Origin: Longimicrobiales bacterium
GTDB lineage: Bacteria > Gemmatimonadota > Gemmatimonadetes > Longimicrobiales > Gaopeijiaceae
Assembly: GCA_965248195.1 (NCBI GenBank)
Contig: CBDFIQ010000001.1
Span: forward strand, 128,001 to 192,000
Direction of reading: 5' to 3'
Length of the DNA stretch: 64,000 bases
Below are positions 820-29,339 of the stretch, one piece after another (position 1 is the stretch's first letter; each line of letters opens with the position of its first letter). The notes beneath the pieces were generated by a model. The model was not told the DNA's origin. It ran no database searches and saw nothing but the letters and a program-made list of their open reading frames with translations. The translations under genes and the position numbers were made by a program.

Positions 820-856
820 CAAAAGCCCTTTGACGGCTCGGGGCAAGGTGAGGGGC
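820..856. repeat. Dispersed 37-bp intergenic motif, copy 1
   Basis: CAAAAGCCCTTTGACGGCTCGGGGCAAGGTGAGGGGC; 32/37 identical to the copy at 24128..24164. Confidence 0.8.
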
Positions 857-986
857 TGCGGAAAAAGGAGTGCCCCGCAGCCCCGGTCGCATCACCTCGC
901 ACCCGAGAGTACCTTACGCCGGACACGAAGAAGGTCGGGGGGTCTGCCGGACAGCCCGACCCGCACCGCGAAAGTCGGAGGACAGC

Positions 987-2720
987 TTGAAGATTCGAAC
1001 GGTCATGCTTGAACGCACTGTTTCTTGGGCGATTTCTTGGGCGATGCTCGCCATCTTGGTTGCGGGCACGGCGGCAGTCGCGCAAACAGAGCTACCGGAG
1101 TGGGATCCGATCACGATGGAGCGGCTGCTGAACCCGGAGGACGGCGACTGGCTGAACTACCGGCGCACCTATGACGTGTTCGGCTTCAGCCCCCTGGACC
1201 AGATCAACAGGACGAACGTTCGAGATCTCCGACCTGTCTGGGCCTACTCGATGCGGGATAACAGCCGATGGGTACCGACGCCGATCATCGCGAACGGGCG
1301 CATGTACGTCGCCGAGGGCAGCGGCCGTGTCGTCGCCTTCGACGTAGTCTCCGGCGACGTCGCGTGGATACACGAACGGACCTATCCCGAGGACATTCAG
1401 CTTTCCCAGGCCTACCGCCGGCACCGTGGCGTCTCCGTCTACGACGACAAGATCTACTGGGGGACGGCCGACTCTTACCTGGTCGCGCTGGACGCGCGCA
1501 CGGGGGAACAGATCTGGGAGGCCAGGACTGGTGACTACCATACGGGCATAGGCCACAACCACCCTCCCTTGATCGCCGGTGGCAAGATCATCCTGGGATT
1601 CACCGGGGGTGACCGTGGCGCCCGCGGTGCAATCGCCGCGTACGATCCCCAAAATGGTGACCTGATCTGGAGGACCTATACCGTTCCCGCCCCGGGGGAG
1701 CCCGGTTCGGAGAGCTGGAAGGATAGTGACTACCCACCACTCGGTGGGGCGACGTGGGGCACGATCAGTTACGATCCCGAGTTGGGGTTCGTCTACTTCG
1801 GCACCGGTCAGCCTAGGCCCTGGTCTTCGACGCTTCGCGGTCTTGGCGATGCGTTGTACACGAACTCGGTCATCGCGCTCGACATCGAGAACGGCCAGAT
1901 GGAGTGGTACTTTCAGGTCGTCCCGGAAGACAACTGGGACATGGACTCACCGTACGAAAGCACCTTGCTCGATATGATCATCAACGGTGAGGTCCGTAAG
2001 GTGCTCATCCATACCAGCAAGATTGGTTGGGGCGTCGTGTTGGACCGGGAGACGGGCCAGTTCATTCACTCATTCAGGACCGCCTACGACAACCTTATTA
2101 TGGGTTGGACCGAAGAGGGGCGCCCGATCTTCAACCCGGATCAGATCCCTACAGCGGCGGACGTCGACTCCGACAAGGTCTTCGAGGTGTGCCCGCACTA
2201 TCACGGGGCGAGGAATCTGAATTCGCCGAGCTACAGTCCGCTCACAGGACTGTATTACATGGGCCTCAACAACAGCTGCATGGATGTCAATTTCGTCTCG
2301 GAGGAGCCGGGTGGGAGATACGCTGGTATGAGGTCTCGCGTAAAGATGGTGCCCGGCTACGACTACGTGGGAGAGTTCGTGGCCTTCGATCCGATCACGG
2401 GGGAGCGGGCATGGGAGTACCGACTGCCCGGCGGGGCCGCGATGACGGCCGCGGCGTTGGCGACGGCAGGTGGCATCGTGTTTGGGGGAGCTGCGGATCG
2501 TCGTTTTTTCGCGCTCGACACGGACACGGGGGAGGCCCTTTGGGAGATGCGCTTGAACGGTGACATATCAGGTGCCCCGGTCACCTTCGAGGTCGGGGGA
2601 AGGCAGTACGTCGCCGTCGGCGCGGGAGGTCGTATCGGCCAGACGACTTCCTACGCGCCGTTGACGGGTACGGACGTTCCGCAAGGAAGCGGCGTCATAT
2701 GGGTGTTCGCGCTGCCATAG
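987..2720 (+). CDS. PQQ-dependent dehydrogenase (alcohol dehydrogenase-like beta-propeller), secreted
   Basis: Signal peptide; DWLNYRRTYD..FSPLDQIN; repeated Trp-docking motifs; WDMD motif; C-terminal GRQYVAVGAG. Start is either TTG 987 (GGAGG RBS) or ATG 1005. Confidence 0.9.
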   Translation: MKIRTVMLERTVSWAISWAMLAILVAGTAAVAQTELPEWDPITMERLLNPEDGDWLNYRRTYDVFGFSPLDQINRTNVRDLRPVWAYSMRDNSRWVPTPIIANGRMYVAEGSGRVVAFDVVSGDVAWIHERTYPEDIQLSQAYRRHRGVSVYDDKIYWGTADSYLVALDARTGEQIWEARTGDYHTGIGHNHPPLIAGGKIILGFTGGDRGARGAIAAYDPQNGDLIWRTYTVPAPGEPGSESWKDSDYPPLGGATWGTISYDPELGFVYFGTGQPRPWSSTLRGLGDALYTNSVIALDIENGQMEWYFQVVPEDNWDMDSPYESTLLDMIINGEVRKVLIHTSKIGWGVVLDRETGQFIHSFRTAYDNLIMGWTEEGRPIFNPDQIPTAADVDSDKVFEVCPHYHGARNLNSPSYSPLTGLYYMGLNNSCMDVNFVSEEPGGRYAGMRSRVKMVPGYDYVGEFVAFDPITGERAWEYRLPGGAAMTAAALATAGGIVFGGAADRRFFALDTDTGEALWEMRLNGDISGAPVTFEVGGRQYVAVGAGGRIGQTTSYAPLTGTDVPQGSGVIWVFALP

Positions 2721-2741
2721 ACCGCGCCCCGCGACGTGAGC

Positions 2742-4466
2742 TTATTTCTCGTCCAACGCCTGGAGCGCGATGAGCGAGGCGCTGTGGTTACTTCCGATCC
2801 AGAACGTCACCGGCGTCGTTGAATCGTCCACGAACACACGGCGAATGTTGACGCCCTTTTCGGGTAGCAGATACTCGACAAACTCCCCCGTCCCGGGAAT
2901 GAGCCGCACCACGCGATCGGTGAACATCGACCCGGTCCAAAGGTCGCCGTTCCTGTCCACGACGGTATCGTACGGCTTGGTGCGGGGCGTTGGCGGCTGC
3001 CACTCCTGGAATTCCTCGGTCCGAGGGTCGAACATGCCGATCACGTTACCACCAAATCCAGCGTACCAGACGCGGTCTTGCGAGTCGACCCCGCCCCTGC
3101 GCGGGCGCGACCCGAGCGTCGGTGTCTCATAGAGGGTGATTCCCCCGGTCTTGGCATCGATCCGACCGATGTGCTCGTTCGAGAAATCCATGAACCACAA
3201 GTTGTTCTCTGAGTCCGGCTGAATACCGTACAGGTTGTGCGAGCTACGTGTCGAGTTGAGGAACGGCTCGAAGGACTCGAATTCACCGGTCGCCAGGTCC
3301 AGACGATGAACCCCGGCGATCGACCGGTTTTGTAGCCAGACCTTTCCGTCCACGTGGGAGCTCTCCGGAGCCGCGTGGTTTATTTGAAAAAGGCGGGTGC
3401 CATGCGGCCCCTTGGGCTGCTCCAGCTCATCGGGAACCTTCCACACCCGGAACTCCTCGGTCTGCCGGTCAAATTTGAAGATGGACCCCTGGAACATGTT
3501 GCCTCCCCAGGGATTGCCGTCTCGGTCCAACTTCAAGGCCAGGATGCCGGTGGGATTTCCAGGCCTCGCCTCGGGAACTTGGTATTCCGTGACCTCACCC
3601 GTCCGTGGGTCGAGCTTGCCCAAGTACTGTTGCCCGAAGTCGACGTACCACACCATGCCGTCCGGATCGACTTCCGCGTCGTGCGGCGCTGTCGATGGGT
3701 TCGGAAGATCATACTCCGTAATGATGACTTGTGTGGCCCGTCCTGTAGGACGGGGGAAGGTCTCGAGGTCGTACTCCCGTTTGCCTGAGCTCAGATTGAT
3801 GCTGGCCAGATAGTCGGCCTGCCGCCGTCGAGCTTCCTGCTGCCGCTCGCTCCGCTCGGCGAACGGTGTCACCTGCTCGGCGGGACGCCTCTGCGGGTTG
3901 CCGGGGAAAGCCGACGTCACATAACCATCCATTCGTTCCAGGACGCCCAGCCAGGCGTCCGCATCGTACTGCGACCGCATGACTCGATCGATGGTATGGC
4001 AGCGCACACAGGACTCGAACATGCGCTTCTGCGCTTCTGTCCCGGGAATGCTCTCGAGCCACTCCGCGTTCGTGAGCTGAGCCTCGAGATCCTGGGTCGG
4101 GCGGAGGGCGAGATCGACTGTGGCCGTCCCCGACACTCCGACTTCCGCGGCCTTCGGGCCCTCAAGATCATAACCCACGGCACGGATGCTGAGTGTATGC
4201 GGCCCTGCTTGCAATCTGCCCTCAGGGAAGTGATACCGGCCCTGGGCATCGCTGATCACGCTGACCGCGATCGTGGAACCCTCCCGCTTTGCGGTGACGA
4301 CCACCCCTTCCATTGAGCCTTCCGCCGCAGAGGTGACCTGTCCGGTCACCGCGACCTCAGCTTGCGGGAGAGGAGCAAGTTCTCTTTGAGAGGCGAGAGC
4401 GATCAGCGCGCCGGCAAGAACCGCCAGGCTCGCAATGACTCCGAAAAACATGCGATTCGTCAGCAT
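2742..4466 (-). CDS. Secreted protein: carboxypeptidase-regulatory-like Ig domain + c-type heme (CVRCH) + Vgb/streptogramin-lyase-like beta-propeller
   Basis: AAGGAGG RBS before ATG 4466; signal anchor; VTGQV..EGVVVTAKR..SDAQGRY; CxxCH; repeated GKLDPRTGEVTEY-type blades. Confidence 0.8.
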   Translation of the reverse strand: MLTNRMFFGVIASLAVLAGALIALASQRELAPLPQAEVAVTGQVTSAAEGSMEGVVVTAKREGSTIAVSVISDAQGRYHFPEGRLQAGPHTLSIRAVGYDLEGPKAAEVGVSGTATVDLALRPTQDLEAQLTNAEWLESIPGTEAQKRMFESCVRCHTIDRVMRSQYDADAWLGVLERMDGYVTSAFPGNPQRRPAEQVTPFAERSERQQEARRRQADYLASINLSSGKREYDLETFPRPTGRATQVIITEYDLPNPSTAPHDAEVDPDGMVWYVDFGQQYLGKLDPRTGEVTEYQVPEARPGNPTGILALKLDRDGNPWGGNMFQGSIFKFDRQTEEFRVWKVPDELEQPKGPHGTRLFQINHAAPESSHVDGKVWLQNRSIAGVHRLDLATGEFESFEPFLNSTRSSHNLYGIQPDSENNLWFMDFSNEHIGRIDAKTGGITLYETPTLGSRPRRGGVDSQDRVWYAGFGGNVIGMFDPRTEEFQEWQPPTPRTKPYDTVVDRNGDLWTGSMFTDRVVRLIPGTGEFVEYLLPEKGVNIRRVFVDDSTTPVTFWIGSNHSASLIALQALDEK

Positions 4467-22709: not shown

Positions 22710-24029
22710 CTAGCGTCCTTCTTTCCTCGCGATCCGTCCGTTGACGCGAACCCAGGTGACGGCTCCGCTTTCGTCACGGATGAATTCGACCGGCATGCCG
22801 GTATATGCGCGCGGCGGGCCGGAATACGCGAGGTCGGGCCCCCAGAAGACCAGCCGGTAGGCATTCTGGCCGCTTCCGACGACGAGCCGTCCGGCTGTGG
22901 CGCGGATCTCCACGACACTCCCAGGCGGTCTCAAGTAGCGCCCTACGTACTCCTCGAGCGGCGGCTGCGTGGCGAGCGGCTCGGCATGGAGCGTCATCCG
23001 CTCGTTGCCGCCTCGGTTGCCGCCGGTCGTCTGATTAGGCGAGAGCGCGAGTCCTTCGTAGGTGTCGAGGATGACGGTCGCGACGTCTTCGTTGAGCCTC
23101 CAGCCGACTCGGTGATTCGTGAGGATCGCGAAGGCGAGATTCCGGTCCGGCACGAGCTGGACGTGCAGACAGTGGCCGCCGAGCGAGCCCCCGTGCTGCG
23201 CGGTGAGCACACCGTTCAGCCTGCGGAGGTGCCACCCGAGACCCATCTCGTCGGTCGTGCTGTTCTTCTGGATTCGTGCGGTGCGTGTCGCTTCGAGCGA
23301 CGACCGCTGCAGGAGCCGCTGGTCATCTCCGGTCGTGCCGTCACCGAGGTGGAATTCGGCGTAGCGTAACAGGTTCTCGATGCTCATCGCGCAGCCACCC
23401 GCCGGGACGTTCGCCGGAAGCTGGAACGGCCGGATGACGACCGTCTGGCTCCCCTGCTCCCGGTGCGGCGCAGCGAAGCGGTGCGTCATCGCCTCGCCGG
23501 TGCGCGTGAAGGCTCGGTCGAGCCCGAGCGGATCGAAGACCAGGTCGCTCAGCGCCTCGCCGATGGTGCTGTCCGTCACGACCTCCAAGACACGTCCCGC
23601 TACGCCGAAGCCCGCGTTGTTGTAACTCCAAACCTCGCCGGGCCTCGCGAGCTGCGGCAGGTCGGTGAGCCCATCGGTGAAGCTGGCGAGCGTCGCGGGT
23701 CCGCGGTCCGGAGTCCCGAGCTGGCCGTGCCACCCCGGCGTGTGCGTGAGGAGATGCCAGATCCGCACCCCGCGGCTTGCCGCCTCGTCCGCGACACGGA
23801 AGTCAGGCAGGTACTCCCGCACCGGTGCCTCGACGTCGACGCGGCCCGCGTCGTGGAGTCGCATCATCGCGGTCGCGACAACCGTCTTGGAGATCGAGGC
23901 GATCGGGAAGACCGTGTCGGGCGAGACCGGCTGAGGGTTGTCGACGTTCGTGAGGCCGAAGCCCCGCCTCTGTGACCCCCCGTTCCTGGAGAGGCCGAAG
24001 GCGACGCCCGTGACCCGGTACTCGGCCAT
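22710..24029 (-). CDS. Serine hydrolase, beta-lactamase class C/AmpC-like family; probably 5'-truncated
   Basis: SxxK (ASISK), LLTHTPG, YNN, HGG. The in-frame upstream region LDPRFDDISGLIEAK has no start codon or signal peptide. Confidence 0.88.
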   Translation of the reverse strand: MAEYRVTGVAFGLSRNGGSQRRGFGLTNVDNPQPVSPDTVFPIASISKTVVATAMMRLHDAGRVDVEAPVREYLPDFRVADEAASRGVRIWHLLTHTPGWHGQLGTPDRGPATLASFTDGLTDLPQLARPGEVWSYNNAGFGVAGRVLEVVTDSTIGEALSDLVFDPLGLDRAFTRTGEAMTHRFAAPHREQGSQTVVIRPFQLPANVPAGGCAMSIENLLRYAEFHLGDGTTGDDQRLLQRSSLEATRTARIQKNSTTDEMGLGWHLRRLNGVLTAQHGGSLGGHCLHVQLVPDRNLAFAILTNHRVGWRLNEDVATVILDTYEGLALSPNQTTGGNRGGNERMTLHAEPLATQPPLEEYVGRYLRPPGSVVEIRATAGRLVVGSGQNAYRLVFWGPDLAYSGPPRAYTGMPVEFIRDESGAVTWVRVNGRIARKEGR

Positions 24030-24127
24030 CTTCGCTTCGATGAGCCCACTGATGTCGTCGAAGCGCGGGTCGAGCTGGGGGGCGCCCCGTCCACGCTGCC
24101 ATCCCCTGCCGTAAGGATTAGGTAAAC

Positions 24128-24164
24128 CAAAAGCCCTTTGACGGGTCGGGATAACGTGAAGGGC
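24128..24164. repeat. Dispersed 37-bp intergenic motif, copy 3
   Basis: CAAAAGCCCTTTGACGGGTCGGGATAACGTGAAGGGC. Followed at ~24186 by AATATCGGGC, the reverse complement of the GCCCGATATT core of the 12867 array. Confidence 0.8.
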
Positions 24165-24228
24165 AGGAGCAAAGCGGTCAAATCAAATATCGGGCGATGC
24201 GTCAATGGGATTCATGCCTCTCCCCGCC

Positions 24229-24426
24229 CCGCAACTCGGGAGTCCCGGCATTGGCGATCACGATATTGCCGTTGCTGAGCCGTCGCGCTCCGCTCGCCTG
24301 AAAGAGCAGATACTCCTCCGGGCCATCGAACGCGCCGATCGTGAGGGTCGGGTCGCTCGACAACCGCCACGCCGTCGCCTCCGGGCACTCCTCCTCAAAG
24401 TTTTCGTAGATCGTGACGCCGGAGCT
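24229..24426 (-). pseudogene. Fragment of a 6-bladed beta-propeller protein
   Basis: SGVTIYEN..WRLSSDPTLTIGAFDGPEEYLLF..ARRLSNGNIVIANAGTPELR resembles the N-terminal part of that family; no proper start or continuation. Confidence 0.6.
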
Positions 24427-24712
24427 CGTCCTCGATCGCGGCCAGATCCTTGCCGGTCTGTCGGTGGAATCGCCCCAGCAAGGCATCCAGCTCGGGACCG
24501 AGGTCGACAGGCAACGAGTCGCCCCGGACGATGAGCGTTCGGGGGTGCGCTTGCATCTCGTCCAGTACGATGAGCTCGCGAAGGAGTCCCTGCGAAGCCC
24601 CGTCGAGGAACACGACGACGAGCGTTGCACGACGAATCAGCTCGTCGGCGACGGTGCCCCAGAGCGGATCTTCCCCTTCCGGGCGTGGTTGAGCAGTCAT
24701 GTCACCTGACAA
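24395..24712 (-). CDS. Short ORF or relic resembling the C-terminal half of a TIR-like alpha/beta domain
   Basis: W..VADELIRRATLVVVFLDGASQGLLREL pattern; overlaps the TIR-NLR start head to head. Confidence 0.4.
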   Translation of the reverse strand: MSGDMTAQPRPEGEDPLWGTVADELIRRATLVVVFLDGASQGLLRELIVLDEMQAHPRTLIVRGDSLPVDLGPELDALLGRFHRQTGKDLAAIEDELRRHDLRKL

Positions 24713-26576
24713 CGACCCATCTTGGGACGTCTTTCTCTCCTACGCTCGGAAGGACGACGAGAAGTTCGTCAAAAAGCTCAGAGACGACCTGGTATCCGAG
24801 GGCAAGAGCGTCTGGTGGGACCGCGAGGCGATGGAGAGTCGCGGCCGGGGATTCCCGCTCGAGATCCGAGACGCCATCTGGCATTCCAATAGGGTGGTCG
24901 CTGTGCTCGGTCCGGTAGCTCTCCAGTCCGACTACGTGCGGTTCGAATGGTCGCACGCTCATCTCTACGCGAAGGCCGTCGTTCCGATCCTGAGGAAGGG
25001 AGCGTACGACGGCCTGGGGCAGGATACGGCGACGCTTCTGTTCCGCGACGAGATGGAGGGCCTCACCGAAGAGCTACGACCCGCCGAGTTGGCGGAGCGG
25101 CACTGCATCGACTTCACTGATGACGAGAAGTATCCGGACGCCCTCGAGGAGTTGTTGGACAAGCTGGAGGGAGAGATTCTCCCGCTGGCCGACCTTCATG
25201 CTGCGCCCAGGTTCCCTCCACCAAACTTCGTGCCGCTCCCGAAGATCGTGGGCATGCTGTCCGATCTCCTGATCTACGACGTCGATGACCCGCGGTCACT
25301 GCGCACGGACATCAGGACCACCGTCTTGCGCGGGCGAGGGGGAATGGGCAAGTCCGTCATGGCGAACGCCTTCGCCAATGCGGTCAAGACTCGGTGGGCG
25401 TTCCTGGATGGGATCTTCTGGGTGCCCATCGGGCGGAGTCCCAACGATGAGAGACTGCTCGAGGCTCTTCGCCACATCGCGCTCCACGTAGACAGGAACC
25501 AGCTACCGACATACACGGACCGGCGGATCGCGAGGACGCTTCTGACTGAAGCCCTCAGCGAAACGCGATGTCTTCTGATCTTGGACGACGTGTGGGAAGC
25601 CGGAGACGTCCGGGACTTCACAGACGTCCTCGGACCCGCTTGTTCACTGCTCATCACGACCCGGAACGACGACGTCGCGGCTGGTCTGGGTGCGAGCCGC
25701 GTCGACCTGGAGACGTTGCCGCTCAAGAAAAGTGTCGCCCTTCAGCTGCTTGGCGATTGGGCCAAACAGTCGCCCGAGACTCTCCCACCCGAGGCCGAAG
25801 TGGTGGTGAAATTCTGCGATCACGTTCCGCTGGCTCTTGCCCTGTGCGGTGCGCTCATCCAGAAGGGTGAGACCTCGTGGCCGCGACTGCCGACCGTTCT
25901 GGCCGAGGCGAGGGAGCGAGTCCTGGACTCCTCGCTCCCCGCGTACGATCCGAAGGAGATCAACGTCTTCACGCCTATCGCCGCCAGCCTTCAATACCTG
26001 AAGGAGCTCGATCAGGAGGACGAGAAGGTCGGCAAGGAGCCGCTTCATCGATACGACAGCTATGTCGACCTGGCCGTCCTGCCCAACGATGCCCTGACCC
26101 CGGAAGCGGTCGTGTGCGCCCTCTGGATCGCCAACCAGGCCTTGGACCAGGATCTGTCGGTGAAGCTCCTCAGCCAATTGGACAGCAGAGCCCTGCTGCG
26201 GTTCCTTGGGGACCCTCCACTCGGGGAGATCCTGCTCCACAACCTGCAACACTTCTTCCTCGCCTCCCGGATCGACGCGGAGGAGACGACGGTGCTCCAC
26301 GGTGTGCTCGGGAGGGCATTGATGCAGCTATGGAGCACCGATCGGTCCCGGGGGGGGGGGGGGGGGGGGGCCGGAACCGGAGCGAGCTCTGGAGCTGGAG
26401 GAAGACGACACGGTGACGAGCTACTGCGTACGGTTCCTATGTCGGCATCTCCGGGAAGGCTGCTGTTGGGAAGAGCTGGGACGGCTTCTGGCAGATGTCC
26501 GATTCCTGCGGAGGAAGCAGGAGCCGGCCGCCCAGCTCGGATTGGAGGAGGAGATCCTGGATCTGTTGGCCGATGA
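24699..26576 (+). CDS. TIR + NB-ARC (STAND/NLR-like) protein, N-terminal part; goes out of frame at the G21 tract
   Basis: TIR: DVFLSYAR, VWWD, SDYVRFEW. NB-ARC: Walker A GRGGMGKS, Walker B LLILDDVW, LLITTR, HVPLAL, MHD-like LHNL. Sequence after 26370 in this frame looks non-native. Confidence 0.9.
   Translation: MSPDNDPSWDVFLSYARKDDEKFVKKLRDDLVSEGKSVWWDREAMESRGRGFPLEIRDAIWHSNRVVAVLGPVALQSDYVRFEWSHAHLYAKAVVPILRKGAYDGLGQDTATLLFRDEMEGLTEELRPAELAERHCIDFTDDEKYPDALEELLDKLEGEILPLADLHAAPRFPPPNFVPLPKIVGMLSDLLIYDVDDPRSLRTDIRTTVLRGRGGMGKSVMANAFANAVKTRWAFLDGIFWVPIGRSPNDERLLEALRHIALHVDRNQLPTYTDRRIARTLLTEALSETRCLLILDDVWEAGDVRDFTDVLGPACSLLITTRNDDVAAGLGASRVDLETLPLKKSVALQLLGDWAKQSPETLPPEAEVVVKFCDHVPLALALCGALIQKGETSWPRLPTVLAEARERVLDSSLPAYDPKEINVFTPIAASLQYLKELDQEDEKVGKEPLHRYDSYVDLAVLPNDALTPEAVVCALWIANQALDQDLSVKLLSQLDSRALLRFLGDPPLGEILLHNLQHFFLASRIDAEETTVLHGVLGRALMQLWSTDRSRGGGGGGAGTGASSGAGGRRHGDELLRTVPMSASPGRLLLGRAGTASGRCPIPAEEAGAGRPARIGGGDPGSVGR
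26350..26370 (+). repeat. G21 homopolymer tract
   Basis: 21 consecutive G inside the NLR-like gene, exactly at the frame switch. Confidence 0.95.
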
Positions 26577-27588
26577 GGAGGCGCCGATGGAGCGTGTCCT
26601 CGAGGGCATCGCTTCGGCCATCATGGATGGGATGGAGCTGTCGCGGGAGAAGGCGGATTGGCTGGACACGCTCGCCTATTGGATGGGCAGTGCGAAGCCG
26701 GCCGGTGACGAGCGACGCCGGGAAGGCCTGAAGCGGGTCGCGATCGAGTTGGATGAGGCCTGCGGCGAAGTATCGAGGGACCTTGCTGAGAAATACCTGA
26801 ACGAGGGGGAGCTCGATTCGGCTATGCGCTTCGCGGAGTTGCGAACCTGGGTTTGCCAGCGGAGAGGGGACTACCGGGCACTGGTCGACGCGTGCGACGC
26901 AGGCGAGGCGATGTGCAGGACGGAGCAAGTTGCGGCAGGGTACCGAACACTGGGACTCTCCGAGTTCATACGCATGCGGGCGTACGCACTAACGCATCTG
27001 GCCGGGACGGCTGGCGGCGATGGCAAAGACGTGCGGGCGCGCGTCGCGCCGGAGTTCGATGAGCTGAGTCGGGTCTTTGCCGAGATCGGAACTGAGGGAT
27101 GGAGGCTCAGCAGAGAGGAGTGGCTGGCCCTGCAGGAGAGGGGAGCCGGAGGCTTCGCGCTGTCACATCGGCGTTCCCGCGATGACTCGATGACCTTCAA
27201 AGCAAACGTCGTCTCCAACGAACATGACGCCATCGGTGCGATGTATCTGATTCAGGTCCTGGAGAGTCGCGGGGGTTTCGTGAACTGGATCCACCATAAG
27301 GACTTCGAGCCCGGGCAACTCGATCAGGAGGGTGCCCGGCTCACCGTCCTGCTCGGCGGCCCCAAGACTCCCGATTTCTCAGACGTGGCACACCGCTTCT
27401 ACGAATCCGACCGCGACGCCTACCTGCGAATGTACTCGGGGCTTCACTTCGGGCCTATCGCTCTCAAGCTCGTGGACGAGGAGACTCGCTCCGTGGCGTT
27501 CATGTTAGGGGGGGCCTCCAAGCTCCACACGTTGCAGGCGGTCCACGACTTCGCGAATAGCGATGAGGTGACCCACATCATCGGCTAG
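26413..27588 (+). CDS. C-terminal part of the NLR-like protein: APAF1-type helical domain, TPR-like helices, small alpha/beta domain
   Basis: Frame is open from 26371. YCVRFLCRHL..WEELGRLLADVRFL resembles the APAF1 helical motif that normally follows NB-ARC. Confidence 0.8.
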   Translation: MTSYCVRFLCRHLREGCCWEELGRLLADVRFLRRKQEPAAQLGLEEEILDLLADEEAPMERVLEGIASAIMDGMELSREKADWLDTLAYWMGSAKPAGDERRREGLKRVAIELDEACGEVSRDLAEKYLNEGELDSAMRFAELRTWVCQRRGDYRALVDACDAGEAMCRTEQVAAGYRTLGLSEFIRMRAYALTHLAGTAGGDGKDVRARVAPEFDELSRVFAEIGTEGWRLSREEWLALQERGAGGFALSHRRSRDDSMTFKANVVSNEHDAIGAMYLIQVLESRGGFVNWIHHKDFEPGQLDQEGARLTVLLGGPKTPDFSDVAHRFYESDRDAYLRMYSGLHFGPIALKLVDEETRSVAFMLGGASKLHTLQAVHDFANSDEVTHIIG

Positions 27589-27650
27589 TATCGGGCCTCT
27601 TTGTTATTCCGGGGGCTGACGATCACCACGCCTTCCACGAAGACGCCAGG

Positions 27651-29339
27651 CTAGCGTCCGTCCGCCTCGACCGGGAGGGCGAAGACGTAGATCGCGTTGC
27701 TCCGATTGCCCCCAACCGGCGCCGCCACGTATTGCCTGCCGTCGACCGCGTAGGTGATCGGGAACCCCTGCACCGAAGCGGGCAATCGCGTCCGGAACAG
27801 GACGTCGCCGGTGGCGGCATCGTGGAAGTACAGATTACGGTCGGTGTCGGCACTGACCACCAGGCCGCCGCCCGTCGTAAGCGCCGCCGCGTGCGGGGCC
27901 GTGGGCGTGGAGTGCCGCCACAGGATCTCGCCGCTGTTGATGTCCATGGCGATCAGGTGGCCGCGGTGGTCCGGGCTGTCGGGGTGCGCCGTGGTTCCTT
28001 CCGAGCGCCACCCGCTGTTCGAGTAGTAGGGCGCTTGGATTACCTTTTCGATCTCGGTGAACGTCCCCCGTACACAGGTCGGGTGTATGGGGATGTATAG
28101 CGCCTGCGTCTGCGGGTGATACGCCGACGCCGGCCAGTTCCTGATGCCTCGGAAGTCGGGGCAGAACCCGAGCTCCACCCCTACCTGAGGGATCGTTCCG
28201 GGCCGGTAGGTCACCTCGCCCGTCCGTGGGTCTACGTCGATCAGAGTTTGATACCCGAGGTCGTGCGCCGCCACGAACGCTCCACTCGTCCGATCGATCT
28301 CCCAGAGGATGCCCATCTTACCCATCTTGAAGAGCGAGCGTCGGCCGTCGTGGTCGATGAGCACGCTCTCGAACACGTCATCAAGATCATGGGTCTCGCC
28401 CGGCACGAACTGGTAATACCACTCCAGCTCGCCGGTCGCCGGATCGAGCGCGAGCACGCTGTTGCTGTAGAGCGCGTCGCCGTCGGTCCCCCGGGTCAAT
28501 CGGGCCCAGGGCTTGGCCTGTGACGTCGACCAGTACGTCAAGTTGGTCTCCGGGTCGTAGCTGCCCGGAATCCACGAGTCGGCGCCGGCTCGATATTCGA
28601 GGAGCAGGTCGCCCCAGGTGTCACCTCCGGGCTCGCCGGGAGCCGCGATGGTCGAGGTACGCCAGACCTCTTCGCCCGTGTCGGCGTCATGGGCCGAGAT
28701 GAAGCACACATCCTCCTTGAAGCGCTCGCACCCGCTCATTCCGGCCACGATGTTTCCGTTCACCACGATCGGGCCACTGGTGTACCGGTAGCCGAGCGCT
28801 CGGTCCGCCACGGTGTGATCCCAGGCCACCTCGCCCGTGCGGGCGTCGAGCGCCACGATGTGCGCGTCCGAGGCGTTGAGATAGATCTTGTCGCCGTAGA
28901 TCGCGATCGACCGGGAGCGGCTGCTCAAGGTCTCGTCCGGGGGGCCCTCCAACACACGGTCGTACTGCCATAGCAGGTCTCCCGTGACGGCGTCGATCGC
29001 CTGAATGATGTTGTTCGGATTCGCGATGTACATCACGCCATCGTAGACGAGCGGCGTCGGCTGGCTGGCGCCCGGCTCCATACGCCAAGCCCAGACGAGC
29101 TGGAGCCGATGCACGTTGTCGGTGTTGATCTGGTCCAGCGGGCTGTACCCCCACGCATCTAATGTGCGCCGCCAGTTCAGCCAGTCTGCCGGGTCGGGGT
29201 TCGCCAGCATCGCTGACGTGACCGGGGTGAATTCGCGATCCTGGGCGGCGGCTCCGGTCGCCCCCACTGCTGCGAACAGTACCGTCGCCGTAATCGTGAT
29301 GGGCGACCCGAAAAGTGAAGTCCGATTCCGAATGCTCAT
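27651..29339 (-). CDS. PQQ-dependent dehydrogenase (alcohol dehydrogenase-like), secreted
   Basis: Signal peptide; DWLNWRRTLDAWGYSPLDQIN; PTPLVYDG; HDLDD; GRQYVA. Confidence 0.9.
   Translation of the reverse strand: MSIRNRTSLFGSPITITATVLFAAVGATGAAAQDREFTPVTSAMLANPDPADWLNWRRTLDAWGYSPLDQINTDNVHRLQLVWAWRMEPGASQPTPLVYDGVMYIANPNNIIQAIDAVTGDLLWQYDRVLEGPPDETLSSRSRSIAIYGDKIYLNASDAHIVALDARTGEVAWDHTVADRALGYRYTSGPIVVNGNIVAGMSGCERFKEDVCFISAHDADTGEEVWRTSTIAAPGEPGGDTWGDLLLEYRAGADSWIPGSYDPETNLTYWSTSQAKPWARLTRGTDGDALYSNSVLALDPATGELEWYYQFVPGETHDLDDVFESVLIDHDGRRSLFKMGKMGILWEIDRTSGAFVAAHDLGYQTLIDVDPRTGEVTYRPGTIPQVGVELGFCPDFRGIRNWPASAYHPQTQALYIPIHPTCVRGTFTEIEKVIQAPYYSNSGWRSEGTTAHPDSPDHRGHLIAMDINSGEILWRHSTPTAPHAAALTTGGGLVVSADTDRNLYFHDAATGDVLFRTRLPASVQGFPITYAVDGRQYVAAPVGGNRSNAIYVFALPVEADGR

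Follow-up and report, generated by a model that had tools for sequence, protein, structure and literature searches.

Phase variation of restriction-modification and BREX/Pgl systems is established; its proposed benefits are that immunity costs are shared out and that phage come under weaker selection. Triggered NLR-like STAND receptors kill or arrest the cell. Classical contingency tracts are usually 8-13 nucleotides (nt) long and lie near the 5' end of genes in host-adapted, mostly low-GC bacteria. In Streptomyces coelicolor, a high-GC bacterium, the Pgl/BREX-like defence is switched at 1e-2 to 1e-4 by a G tract in pglX (accessible text of PMC4365076, which cites Sumby and Smith, 2003). In Campylobacter, Neisseria and Haemophilus, intragenic G/C runs that set the reading frame are concentrated in surface-structure and restriction genes (available parts of PMC8355987, PMC5084427 and PMC2831843). 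Avs proteins carry mostly TPR-like sensors, and their autoinhibition is relieved by target binding (available part of PMC13581612). Here, we describe a locus at 24699..27588 of the window, our term for a 64,000-nt stretch of a Longimicrobiales bacterium (Gemmatimonadota; assembly GCA_965248195.1, contig CBDFIQ010000001.1, positions 128,001 to 192,000, forward strand), in which a predicted TIR-NB-ARC receptor gene is split by a run of 21 G. We put the probability that this hypermutable tract makes the STAND gene phase-variable in effect at about 0.5.

The run of 21 consecutive G occupies window positions 26350-26370 of the plus strand, between ...GATCGGTCCC on its 5' side and CCGGAACCGG... on its 3' side. 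As the original prediction had it, two plus-strand open reading frames (ORFs) meet here: 24699..26576, with an ATG start, encodes 625 amino acids (aa), and 26413..27588, with a GTG start, encodes 391 aa. Their frames are offset by +1, and the downstream frame is open already from 26371 (PEPERALELEEDDTVTSYCVRFLCRHL...). The elements that bear on the reading frame are:

24699..26349, plus strand: gene segment 5' of the tract, 551 codons of the ORF from ATG 24699, with TIR, NB-ARC and winged-helix/linker parts.
26350..26370, plus strand: G21 homopolymer, predicted to encode six to seven Gly and setting the reading frame; seen in the sequence and in contigs, with no Gly run in 47 homologous sequences.
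26371..26576, plus strand: out-of-frame tail of the G21 state, 68 aa from codon 26370, being the tail AGTGASSGAGGRRHGDELL... of the 625-aa ORF, with its stop at 26574-26576.
26414..26416, plus strand: stop codon of the G19/G22 state in the third frame, where the ORF 25877..26416 ends ...GGGGGGGRNRSELWSWRKTTR.
26371..27588, plus strand: gene segment 3' of the tract, open in the +1 frame for 405 codons and a stop, with a linker, TPR-like repeats and an alpha/beta domain, by homologue coverage and an AF2 model.

Frame arithmetic reproduces the fusion into a protein of about 962 aa that had been proposed for G20, G17 or G23. The G20 product has 962 aa (551 aa, to the CGG at 26349-51, then six Gly and 405 aa), and the G17 and G23 products have 961 and 963 aa. 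At G21 the product is the 625-aa protein including its 68-aa out-of-frame tail, and at G19 or G22 translation enters the third frame and stops at 26414-26416 after about 571 aa. We see here, as had been claimed, a long repeat within an ORF whose length sets the frame, as in contingency loci: G17, G20 and G23 join the two frames, and other lengths truncate the product after the nucleotide-binding oligomerisation domain (NOD). A promoter and terminator scan of 24000-27900 returned no promoter-like site and one terminator-like site, on the minus strand, which is not above the level in shuffled sequences.

The tract resembles classical contingency loci in being an intragenic G run whose length sets the frame. 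It differs from them in being up to 21 nt long and mid-gene, and in lying in a marine Gemmatimonadota with 63% GC. The likeness to Pgl, as far as the accessible text of PMC4365076 describes that system, lies in a high-GC free-living host, a defence gene, here a predicted one, with an intragenic G homopolymer, and contraction or expansion that turns, or here would turn, the system off or on. The two differ in that pglX encodes a methyltransferase of a multi-gene system and its switching has been measured, whereas the window gene encodes a single-protein predicted TIR-STAND receptor, with a tract of about 20 nt in an interdomain loop.

The N-terminus of the predicted protein, MSPDNDPSWDVFLSYARKDD, aligns with the starts of homologues, and the following domains were placed on it:

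24729..25157, plus strand: TIR domain, aa 11-153, with Glu83 in YVRFEW (PF13676 TIR_2, E 9.6e-19, 68.5 bits against a cut-off of 28).
25317..25907, plus strand: NB-ARC NTPase, aa 207-403, with GRGGMGKS, LLILDDVW and TTR (PF00931, E 8.3e-22, 78.1 bits against a cut-off of 23.5).
25908..26349, plus strand: helical/winged-helix part with the conserved LHxLQ (H514) and W545, then STDRSR (alignment; helices 478-556 of the model of homologue P0001).
26407..27135, plus strand: TPR-like alpha-helical repeats, aa 13-255 of the C part, the presumed sensor (AF2 model, Foldseek, VIA-align).
27196..27585, plus strand: C-terminal alpha/beta domain, aa 276-405 of the C part, with VVSNxHD, GGPK, YSG and GGxSK motifs (alignment, model).

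The TIR profile match lies above its cut-off, and the Glu on which the original prediction relied is retained, E83 of YVRFEW being a nearly invariant column among the aligned homologues. We take E83 to be the catalytic Glu of TIR NADases described in the TIR literature; NADase activity is predicted only. The gathering score of Pfam places the next domain in NB-ARC, with a match that spans positions 20-223 of the 248 in PF00931, and Walker A (GxxGxGKS/T, here GRGGMGKS), Walker B (hhhhDD, here LLILDDVW) and the TTR sensor motif are all present. Nearly invariant in the homologue alignment are G212, G214, G215, G217, K218, D296, T320, T321 and R322, and likewise H514, L516, L541 and W545 of the helical part. 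Genome-wide, the window gene gives the sole NB-ARC match.

For the C part (405 aa), no match was found in Pfam, PADLOC or NCBIfam. The AF2 model, built from a 35-sequence alignment (predicted local distance difference test, pLDDT, 88.4; predicted template modelling score, pTM, 0.89), has helices only over residues 13-255, followed by an alpha/beta domain at 276-405. With the helical part, the top Foldseek rows were TPR proteins (KLC1, OGT/SPY), none at E <= 1e-3, and VIA-align gave Z 9-10 to repeat/TPR proteins, a range common among helical repeats. In the alpha/beta domain, D286 is invariant and S282, N283, G329, G330, P331 and K384 are nearly so. Foldseek returned no row at E <= 1e-3 for this domain, and VIA-align matched it to the S-layer anchoring domain 9fsa_A (Z 11.1, root-mean-square deviation 3.0, 113 residues) and, with Z 8-9, to the N-domains of GH67/GH115/GH84 and to MoaB/MogA. 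No function was assigned from these structure matches, as the partners at Z 8-11 are unrelated sandwich domains. On the model, the C-terminal 405 aa are best described as TPR-like repeats and an alpha/beta domain without assigned function. The APAF1 label given earlier has indirect support: neither half matches the APAF-1 helical domain at E <= 0.01, although a precomputed PF17908 match is present in two homologues. A repeat-type C-terminal sensor in the same polypeptide is seen in the homologues and the model, and is out of frame in the assembly.

Neither PADLOC 2.0 nor NCBIfam gave a match specific to Avs/AVAST or another named defence system; the PADLOC models yielded just TIR-level matches (ThsB, SAVED_TIR and PDC-S66, the best being PDC-S66 at 6.4e-09), and every NCBIfam match was far under the curated cut-off. 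Judged by its sequence, the gene product belongs to the NLR-like STAND proteins, has a TIR effector and falls into none of the named systems. The order of effector, NTPase and helical-repeat sensor is the same as in Avs/AVAST. The window protein differs from Avs in that its NTPase scores as NB-ARC rather than as an Avs family, that no PADLOC Avs model matches, and that it has an extra C-terminal alpha/beta domain. Because of this domain order and what is known of Avs proteins, a defence role is predicted; by analogy, the product is most likely an anti-phage receptor that would oligomerise on a trigger and whose TIR would destroy NAD+. Plant TNL proteins and Apaf-1 are likewise comparable, with TIR and NB-ARC in one chain (TNL), a C-terminal repeat sensor, and Walker A, Walker B and TTR motifs, and we take the LHxLQ of the window protein to occupy the place of their MHD motif. 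The window protein is bacterial, its sensor consists of TPR-like helices and an alpha/beta domain rather than LRR or WD40, and the relation is via the NB-ARC and TIR profiles only.

The homologues argue for one gene. Fourteen longer proteins (734-993 aa) match the C part with 94-100% coverage and 37-45% identity, most of them with TIR_2 and NB-ARC. All ten aligned full-length homologues (917-993 aa) are contiguous, in the order TIR, NB-ARC, TPR-like helical repeats and small alpha/beta domain, and the N part is 34-49% identical to the same ten. As these proteins run without interruption across the junction, the sequences support what had been predicted, a single TIR-NB-ARC gene that continues in helices and is interrupted nowhere but at the tract. 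In the ten-homologue alignment, the junction falls where lengths vary, with a conserved Trp (W545) before it and a conserved Tyr after it. A chimeric join at an artefactual poly-G was ruled out, because the flanks are in register in one protein family and three of four sequencing runs bridge the site. The C-part family is rare, with 41 representatives at E <= 1e-3 among 1.84 billion proteins, and most of the full-length matches listed for it align via their C-terminal parts. In a profile scan of species genomes, the one locus found was L065, a distant one, where a Sedimenticolaceae metagenome-assembled genome has an intact ORF of 969 aa. That near relatives exist is indicated by P0027 (95% identity over 92 aa) and P0033 (89%), both of them short fragments that do not extend to the tract.

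The closest homologue, P0001, has 966 aa and a model pLDDT of 83.7. The segment STDRSR-Gly(n)-PEPE aligns to residues 557-566 of P0001, a loop flanked by helices 536-556 and 567-587. In the C-part model, pLDDT is 55 over the 10 residues that come right after the tract. A check of the homologues for a Gly linker or G-run, which the original prediction had proposed, found no Gly run of at least 4 residues at the tract site among P0001-P0047 (47 homologous sequences). Because of this absence and the alignment to the P0001 loop, the tract is modelled as encoding six to seven Gly inserted in the interdomain loop that joins NOD to sensor. The tract follows the conserved winged-helix motif LHxLQ by about 35 residues, so the out-of-frame products would be complete TIR-NOD proteins without a sensor, in agreement with the sensor-less TIR-NB-ARC off-product that had been proposed. 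In the OFF state, such a protein may have an effect of its own, inert or dominant.

In the reading we prefer, the locus would be one gene for a STAND protein of about 962 aa, with a TIR effector, an NB-ARC switch, a TPR-like sensor and a C-terminal alpha/beta domain. Trigger binding would lead to oligomerisation and to destruction of NAD+ by the TIR domain, by analogy with Avs and other TIR-STAND proteins. The run of about 20 G in the NOD-sensor loop would slip often in replication and leave a population of mixed lengths. Of these, G17, G20 and G23 would give the full receptor and other lengths a sensor-less TIR-NOD of 571 or 625 aa, such that the gene would be ON in about one third of length states. 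Slippage climbs steeply with homopolymer length; it follows that, if a run of about 20 G is real, several lengths will be present in the population. The data show a single gene, the tract, its frame logic and loop position, an inconstant length call and the genome-wide pattern; we infer cell-to-cell length heterogeneity, the defence function and any selective value of switching. Switching might serve to hedge bets over a receptor that is costly and kills the cell, in line with a proposal made for Pgl (accessible part of PMC4365076), or might simply be tolerated.

Data on tract length came from the contigs, not the raw reads, of four sequencing runs (X15 to X18) of one sample, probably the source, at depth 6-15; another 14 listed runs, with shares of only 0.05-0.14 of the sampled words, were not included. 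Contigs were compared over 25300-27400, where the reference has 2101 letters. The X15 and X17 contigs span the site with 2099 letters each, two fewer, and the X18 contig with 2100, one fewer; X16, the deepest run (13-15x), gave two contigs ending at 26340 and 26385, which is a break at the tract. The contigs have no further letter differences from the reference over this interval. Their lengths would correspond to G19 (X15), G19 (X17) and G20 (X18), the missing letters being placed in the tract by the record coordinates, as gap positions inside 26341-26384 are not itemised. These data show that a long G run is really present, in four of four runs. The original prediction had cautioned that a sequencing or assembly error could explain the split, and with good reason: the G21 of the assembly was reproduced by none of the three bridging contigs (19, 19 and 20, and one break), and one of the three has an in-frame G20.

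The same lengths can be explained by a technical miscall, whereby the gene has one fixed in-frame length, most simply G20, and the G21 and the 19s are consensus or polymerase errors; the locus would then be an intact STAND gene of the ordinary kind, its linker rich in Gly. We hold this to be unlikely, with the absence of G21 from the bridging contigs, the single G20 and the depth of 6-15 all speaking for it. From general knowledge of slipped-strand mispairing, a real G20 could not hold one length in a growing population, which speaks against it. Other long runs in the genome bear on the same question.

The genome (G000; 4.86 Mb, 63% GC) holds 8302 G/C runs of 5 nt, 1894 of 6, 487 of 7, 129 of 8 and 31 of 9. 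Nine runs are of at least 10 nt: four of 10, and single runs of 11, 13, 14, 15 and 21. Counts drop about 4-fold per added base, which predicts far below one run of at least 13, so the long runs are not a chance tail. The G13 (C2:1595488), which a PQQ dehydrogenase gene follows after about 330 nt, and one G10, between divergent genes, are intergenic, and another G10 lies in an ORF with no Pfam match. Among the six runs in Pfam-supported genes, five are out of frame. Besides the window tract, the six are:

G000:C1:958340-958354 (L002 4341-4355), minus strand: G15, out of frame, in a VWA lipoprotein-like gene, with an 84-codon lipoprotein-like leader in a different frame from the VWA domain.
G000:C1:707496-707509 (L001 2997-3010), minus strand: G14, out of frame, in a type I phosphodiesterase gene with a lipoprotein-like signal (Pfam).
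G000:C1:681547-681556 (L061): G10, out of frame, in a gene for a Big_2 x4-LRR protein, where the LRR unit LDLSLNGWGGG/IADMSAL spans the run.
G000:C2:1347189-1347198 (L062): G10, out of frame, in a gene for an Ig-like protein (Big_1/He_PIG), where ...VATVSMGGG/VVTASGPGSATV... spans the run.
G000:C2:225387-225397 (L004): G11, in frame, in Omp85/BamA, an essential gene and the sole in-frame one of the six.

The two halves of the phosphodiesterase match profile positions 1-109 and 212-317, either side of the G14, and both G10 breaks fall inside recognisable repeat units. The VWA gene has orthologues in none of the 11 congeners. One G fewer or two more would restore the window gene, the VWA gene and the Ig-like gene, and one more or two fewer the phosphodiesterase and Big_2-LRR genes; as the required corrections differ, there is no single systematic length bias. 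A phase test on third-position GC content was dropped, since 15670 of 20000 random positions fell below its signal threshold, and a split-ORF test was used instead. The split-ORF signature was found at 10.2% (240/2360) of runs of 6 nt, 11.1% (70/631) at 7 nt, 13.6% (26/191) at 8 nt and 12.2% (5/41) at 9 nt, compared to 10.75% (430/4000) of random positions. As the runs of 6-9 nt show no excess, the assembly is not generally indel-ridden.

G10 runs are not hard to sequence. That two of them break genes within recognisable domains, that breaks are not in excess at runs of 6-9, and that the broken genes of this genome are all surface or defence genes, with BamA in frame, argues against a miscall. 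The phase-variable reading is favoured by the nature of the broken genes and by the G10 breaks, and also by the otherwise intact state of both halves of the window gene.

MutS matches put G000 in Gemmatimonadota, close to Longimicrobiales. Related genomes carry such tracts too. Runs of at least 13 G occur in 28 of the 41 genomes searched (G000 included). The 28 loci L008-L035 comprise 17 that are cut by a contig end and 11 that are internal; the former are probably technical, and mark poly-G as a technical trouble spot, in keeping with a miscall. Internal tracts in the high-contiguity relatives number six in G016 (13-25 nt), at least 13 in G014 (up to 24 nt) and two in each of G005, G006 and G011 (up to 27 nt). 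This points to long poly-G tracts as a feature of this Gemmatimonadota family as a whole.

The type I phosphodiesterase gives a view of how a tract may arise. Orthologues with 82-91% identity are present in four of the 11 congeners, and the tract site holds an in-frame G6 (Gly-Gly-Ser-Gly) in one of them and an in-frame G8-G9 (Gly4) in the other three, against G14 in G000. By this comparison of sequences, the run is expanded in the G000 lineage, and since congeners carry in-frame runs of G6-G9, tracts would appear to grow from ordinary GGG-codon runs; expansion of this kind is the probable origin of the window tract. Such growth also suits an account in which runaway expansion has permanently inactivated the window gene, the tracts being a mutational hazard of the lineage that is tolerated in dispensable genes without any switching. 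The internal long G/C tracts of the high-contiguity relatives, which are mostly outside genes, the near-random share of intragenic tracts that are out of frame (five of six) and the accessory nature of the window gene, with no match in 40 relatives, are all in line with decay. We nevertheless judge it improbable, as the two halves are, apart from the tract, open across 2.9 kb and retain the residues that are nearly invariant in the family, one data set has an in-frame length, and so long a tract reverts as readily as it breaks.

A number of observations weigh against phase variation of the window gene. The tract is mid-gene, unlike the 5'-proximal tracts of most classical contingency genes. 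Differences of one or two letters at 6-15x are what sequencing and PCR (polymerase chain reaction) slippage alone would give at G20; moreover, all four runs are from one sample, contigs hide minor variants, and the three contigs share a total length of 3334 despite unequal gap counts. A DNA search of 40 related genomes found no copy of the gene, just two short chance-level matches, and single-protein scans of metagenome contigs and of genome contigs found no close relative of it. No named system in PADLOC matches the gene, and its defence role is a prediction by analogy. Without any selection for ON, two-thirds of the genes would be expected to be out of frame, and five of six comes close to that. 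Mismatch-repair loss was rejected as a cause of the tracts: the genome has open frames for both MutS (880 aa) and MutL (618 aa). Twenty tract sites in relatives were classed, approximately, from stop-to-stop ORFs and Pfam matches: 13 are intergenic or within about 20 codons of a gene end, four are not assignable, and three are intragenic, in a DUF1156 ORF (G18, in frame), a Spondin_N/Big_2 gene (C16, in frame) and a DAHP synthase gene (G15, split). These mostly non-coding tracts fit neutral mutation or miscalls as well as they fit a switch. At the DAHP synthase (L055, G014:C15:516617-521631, tract 2501-2515), the G15 separates an FXD domain from DAHP_synth_1; as this is a housekeeping gene, unlikely to be switched off, the split is a warning that long tracts of these assemblies may be miscounted, and it adds to the case for a miscall at the window gene.

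Three side observations concern the tracts of relatives. At L046 (G016:C1:1618004-1623021, tract 2501-2518), the G18 is in frame in the DUF1156-containing ORF, and at L041 (G011:C5:410211-415237, tract 2501-2527), a G27 lies about 400 nt upstream of a NERD-nuclease gene; both may be further defence-linked tracts. Matches to a G13 pattern number 964 in G040 and 202 in G015, many at contig ends (loci L014, L015, L027, L029, L031 and L034), and look like sequencing artefacts in draft assemblies.

A stably out-of-frame gene could also be served by recoding, in which RNA-polymerase slippage or ribosomal frameshifting on the G run yields a little full-length protein and keeps a dangerous predicted NADase receptor scarce. 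Long A/T runs are established sites of transcriptional slippage that rescues frameshifted genes, and a 21-nt homopolymer would fill the entire RNA:DNA hybrid, making realignment free. Such slippage is documented mainly at A/T runs, not G runs; the DNA length itself varies between data sets; and the contiguous homologues need no recoding. None of the 18 listed sequencing runs is recorded as RNA. We consider recoding very improbable.

If the tract is indeed a switch, this would be the first homopolymer-switched NLR-like receptor, with contingency loci in a phylum without described ones: searches of open-access and bioRxiv literature found no link of Avs, NLR, STAND or TIR anti-phage proteins to homopolymer phase variation, and none of phase variation or homopolymers to Gemmatimonadota. 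Random ON/OFF switching would offer another means of bearing the cost of a risky receptor. The gene would join a small set of long-G-tract genes of the genome, with lipoproteins and Ig-like/LRR surface proteins. That a free-living marine-sediment Gemmatimonadota runs a poly-G contingency set of a TIR-STAND receptor, two lipoproteins and two Ig-like/LRR proteins, with the immune receptor bet-hedged, is a tentative possibility. Should the length be a miscall, what is left of the finding is a TIR-NB-ARC-TPR family, rare and uncharacterised, whose C-terminal domain is unusual. In the annotation of these Gemmatimonadota genomes, read-level checks are called for before a gene split at such a tract is taken for a pseudogene or for two genes.

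Two other features of the genome were seen in passing. An A8/T8 run occurs in seven copies with the same abutting ORF pair (110 and 143 codons), at C1:1075812, C1:1471828, C2:77161, C2:832757, C2:868032, C2:1421889 and C2:3348587 of G000; the element looks like an insertion sequence that makes its transposase via programmed frameshifting. At L003 (G000:C2:1593339-1595316), the same-strand ORFs 840..2474 and 2410..2817 overlap and have a common repeat pattern, ..TVQESSGGVHDFEITATG.. and ..TVQELSGGVHEFTVEETG.., and may be another split gene, away from any long homopolymer.

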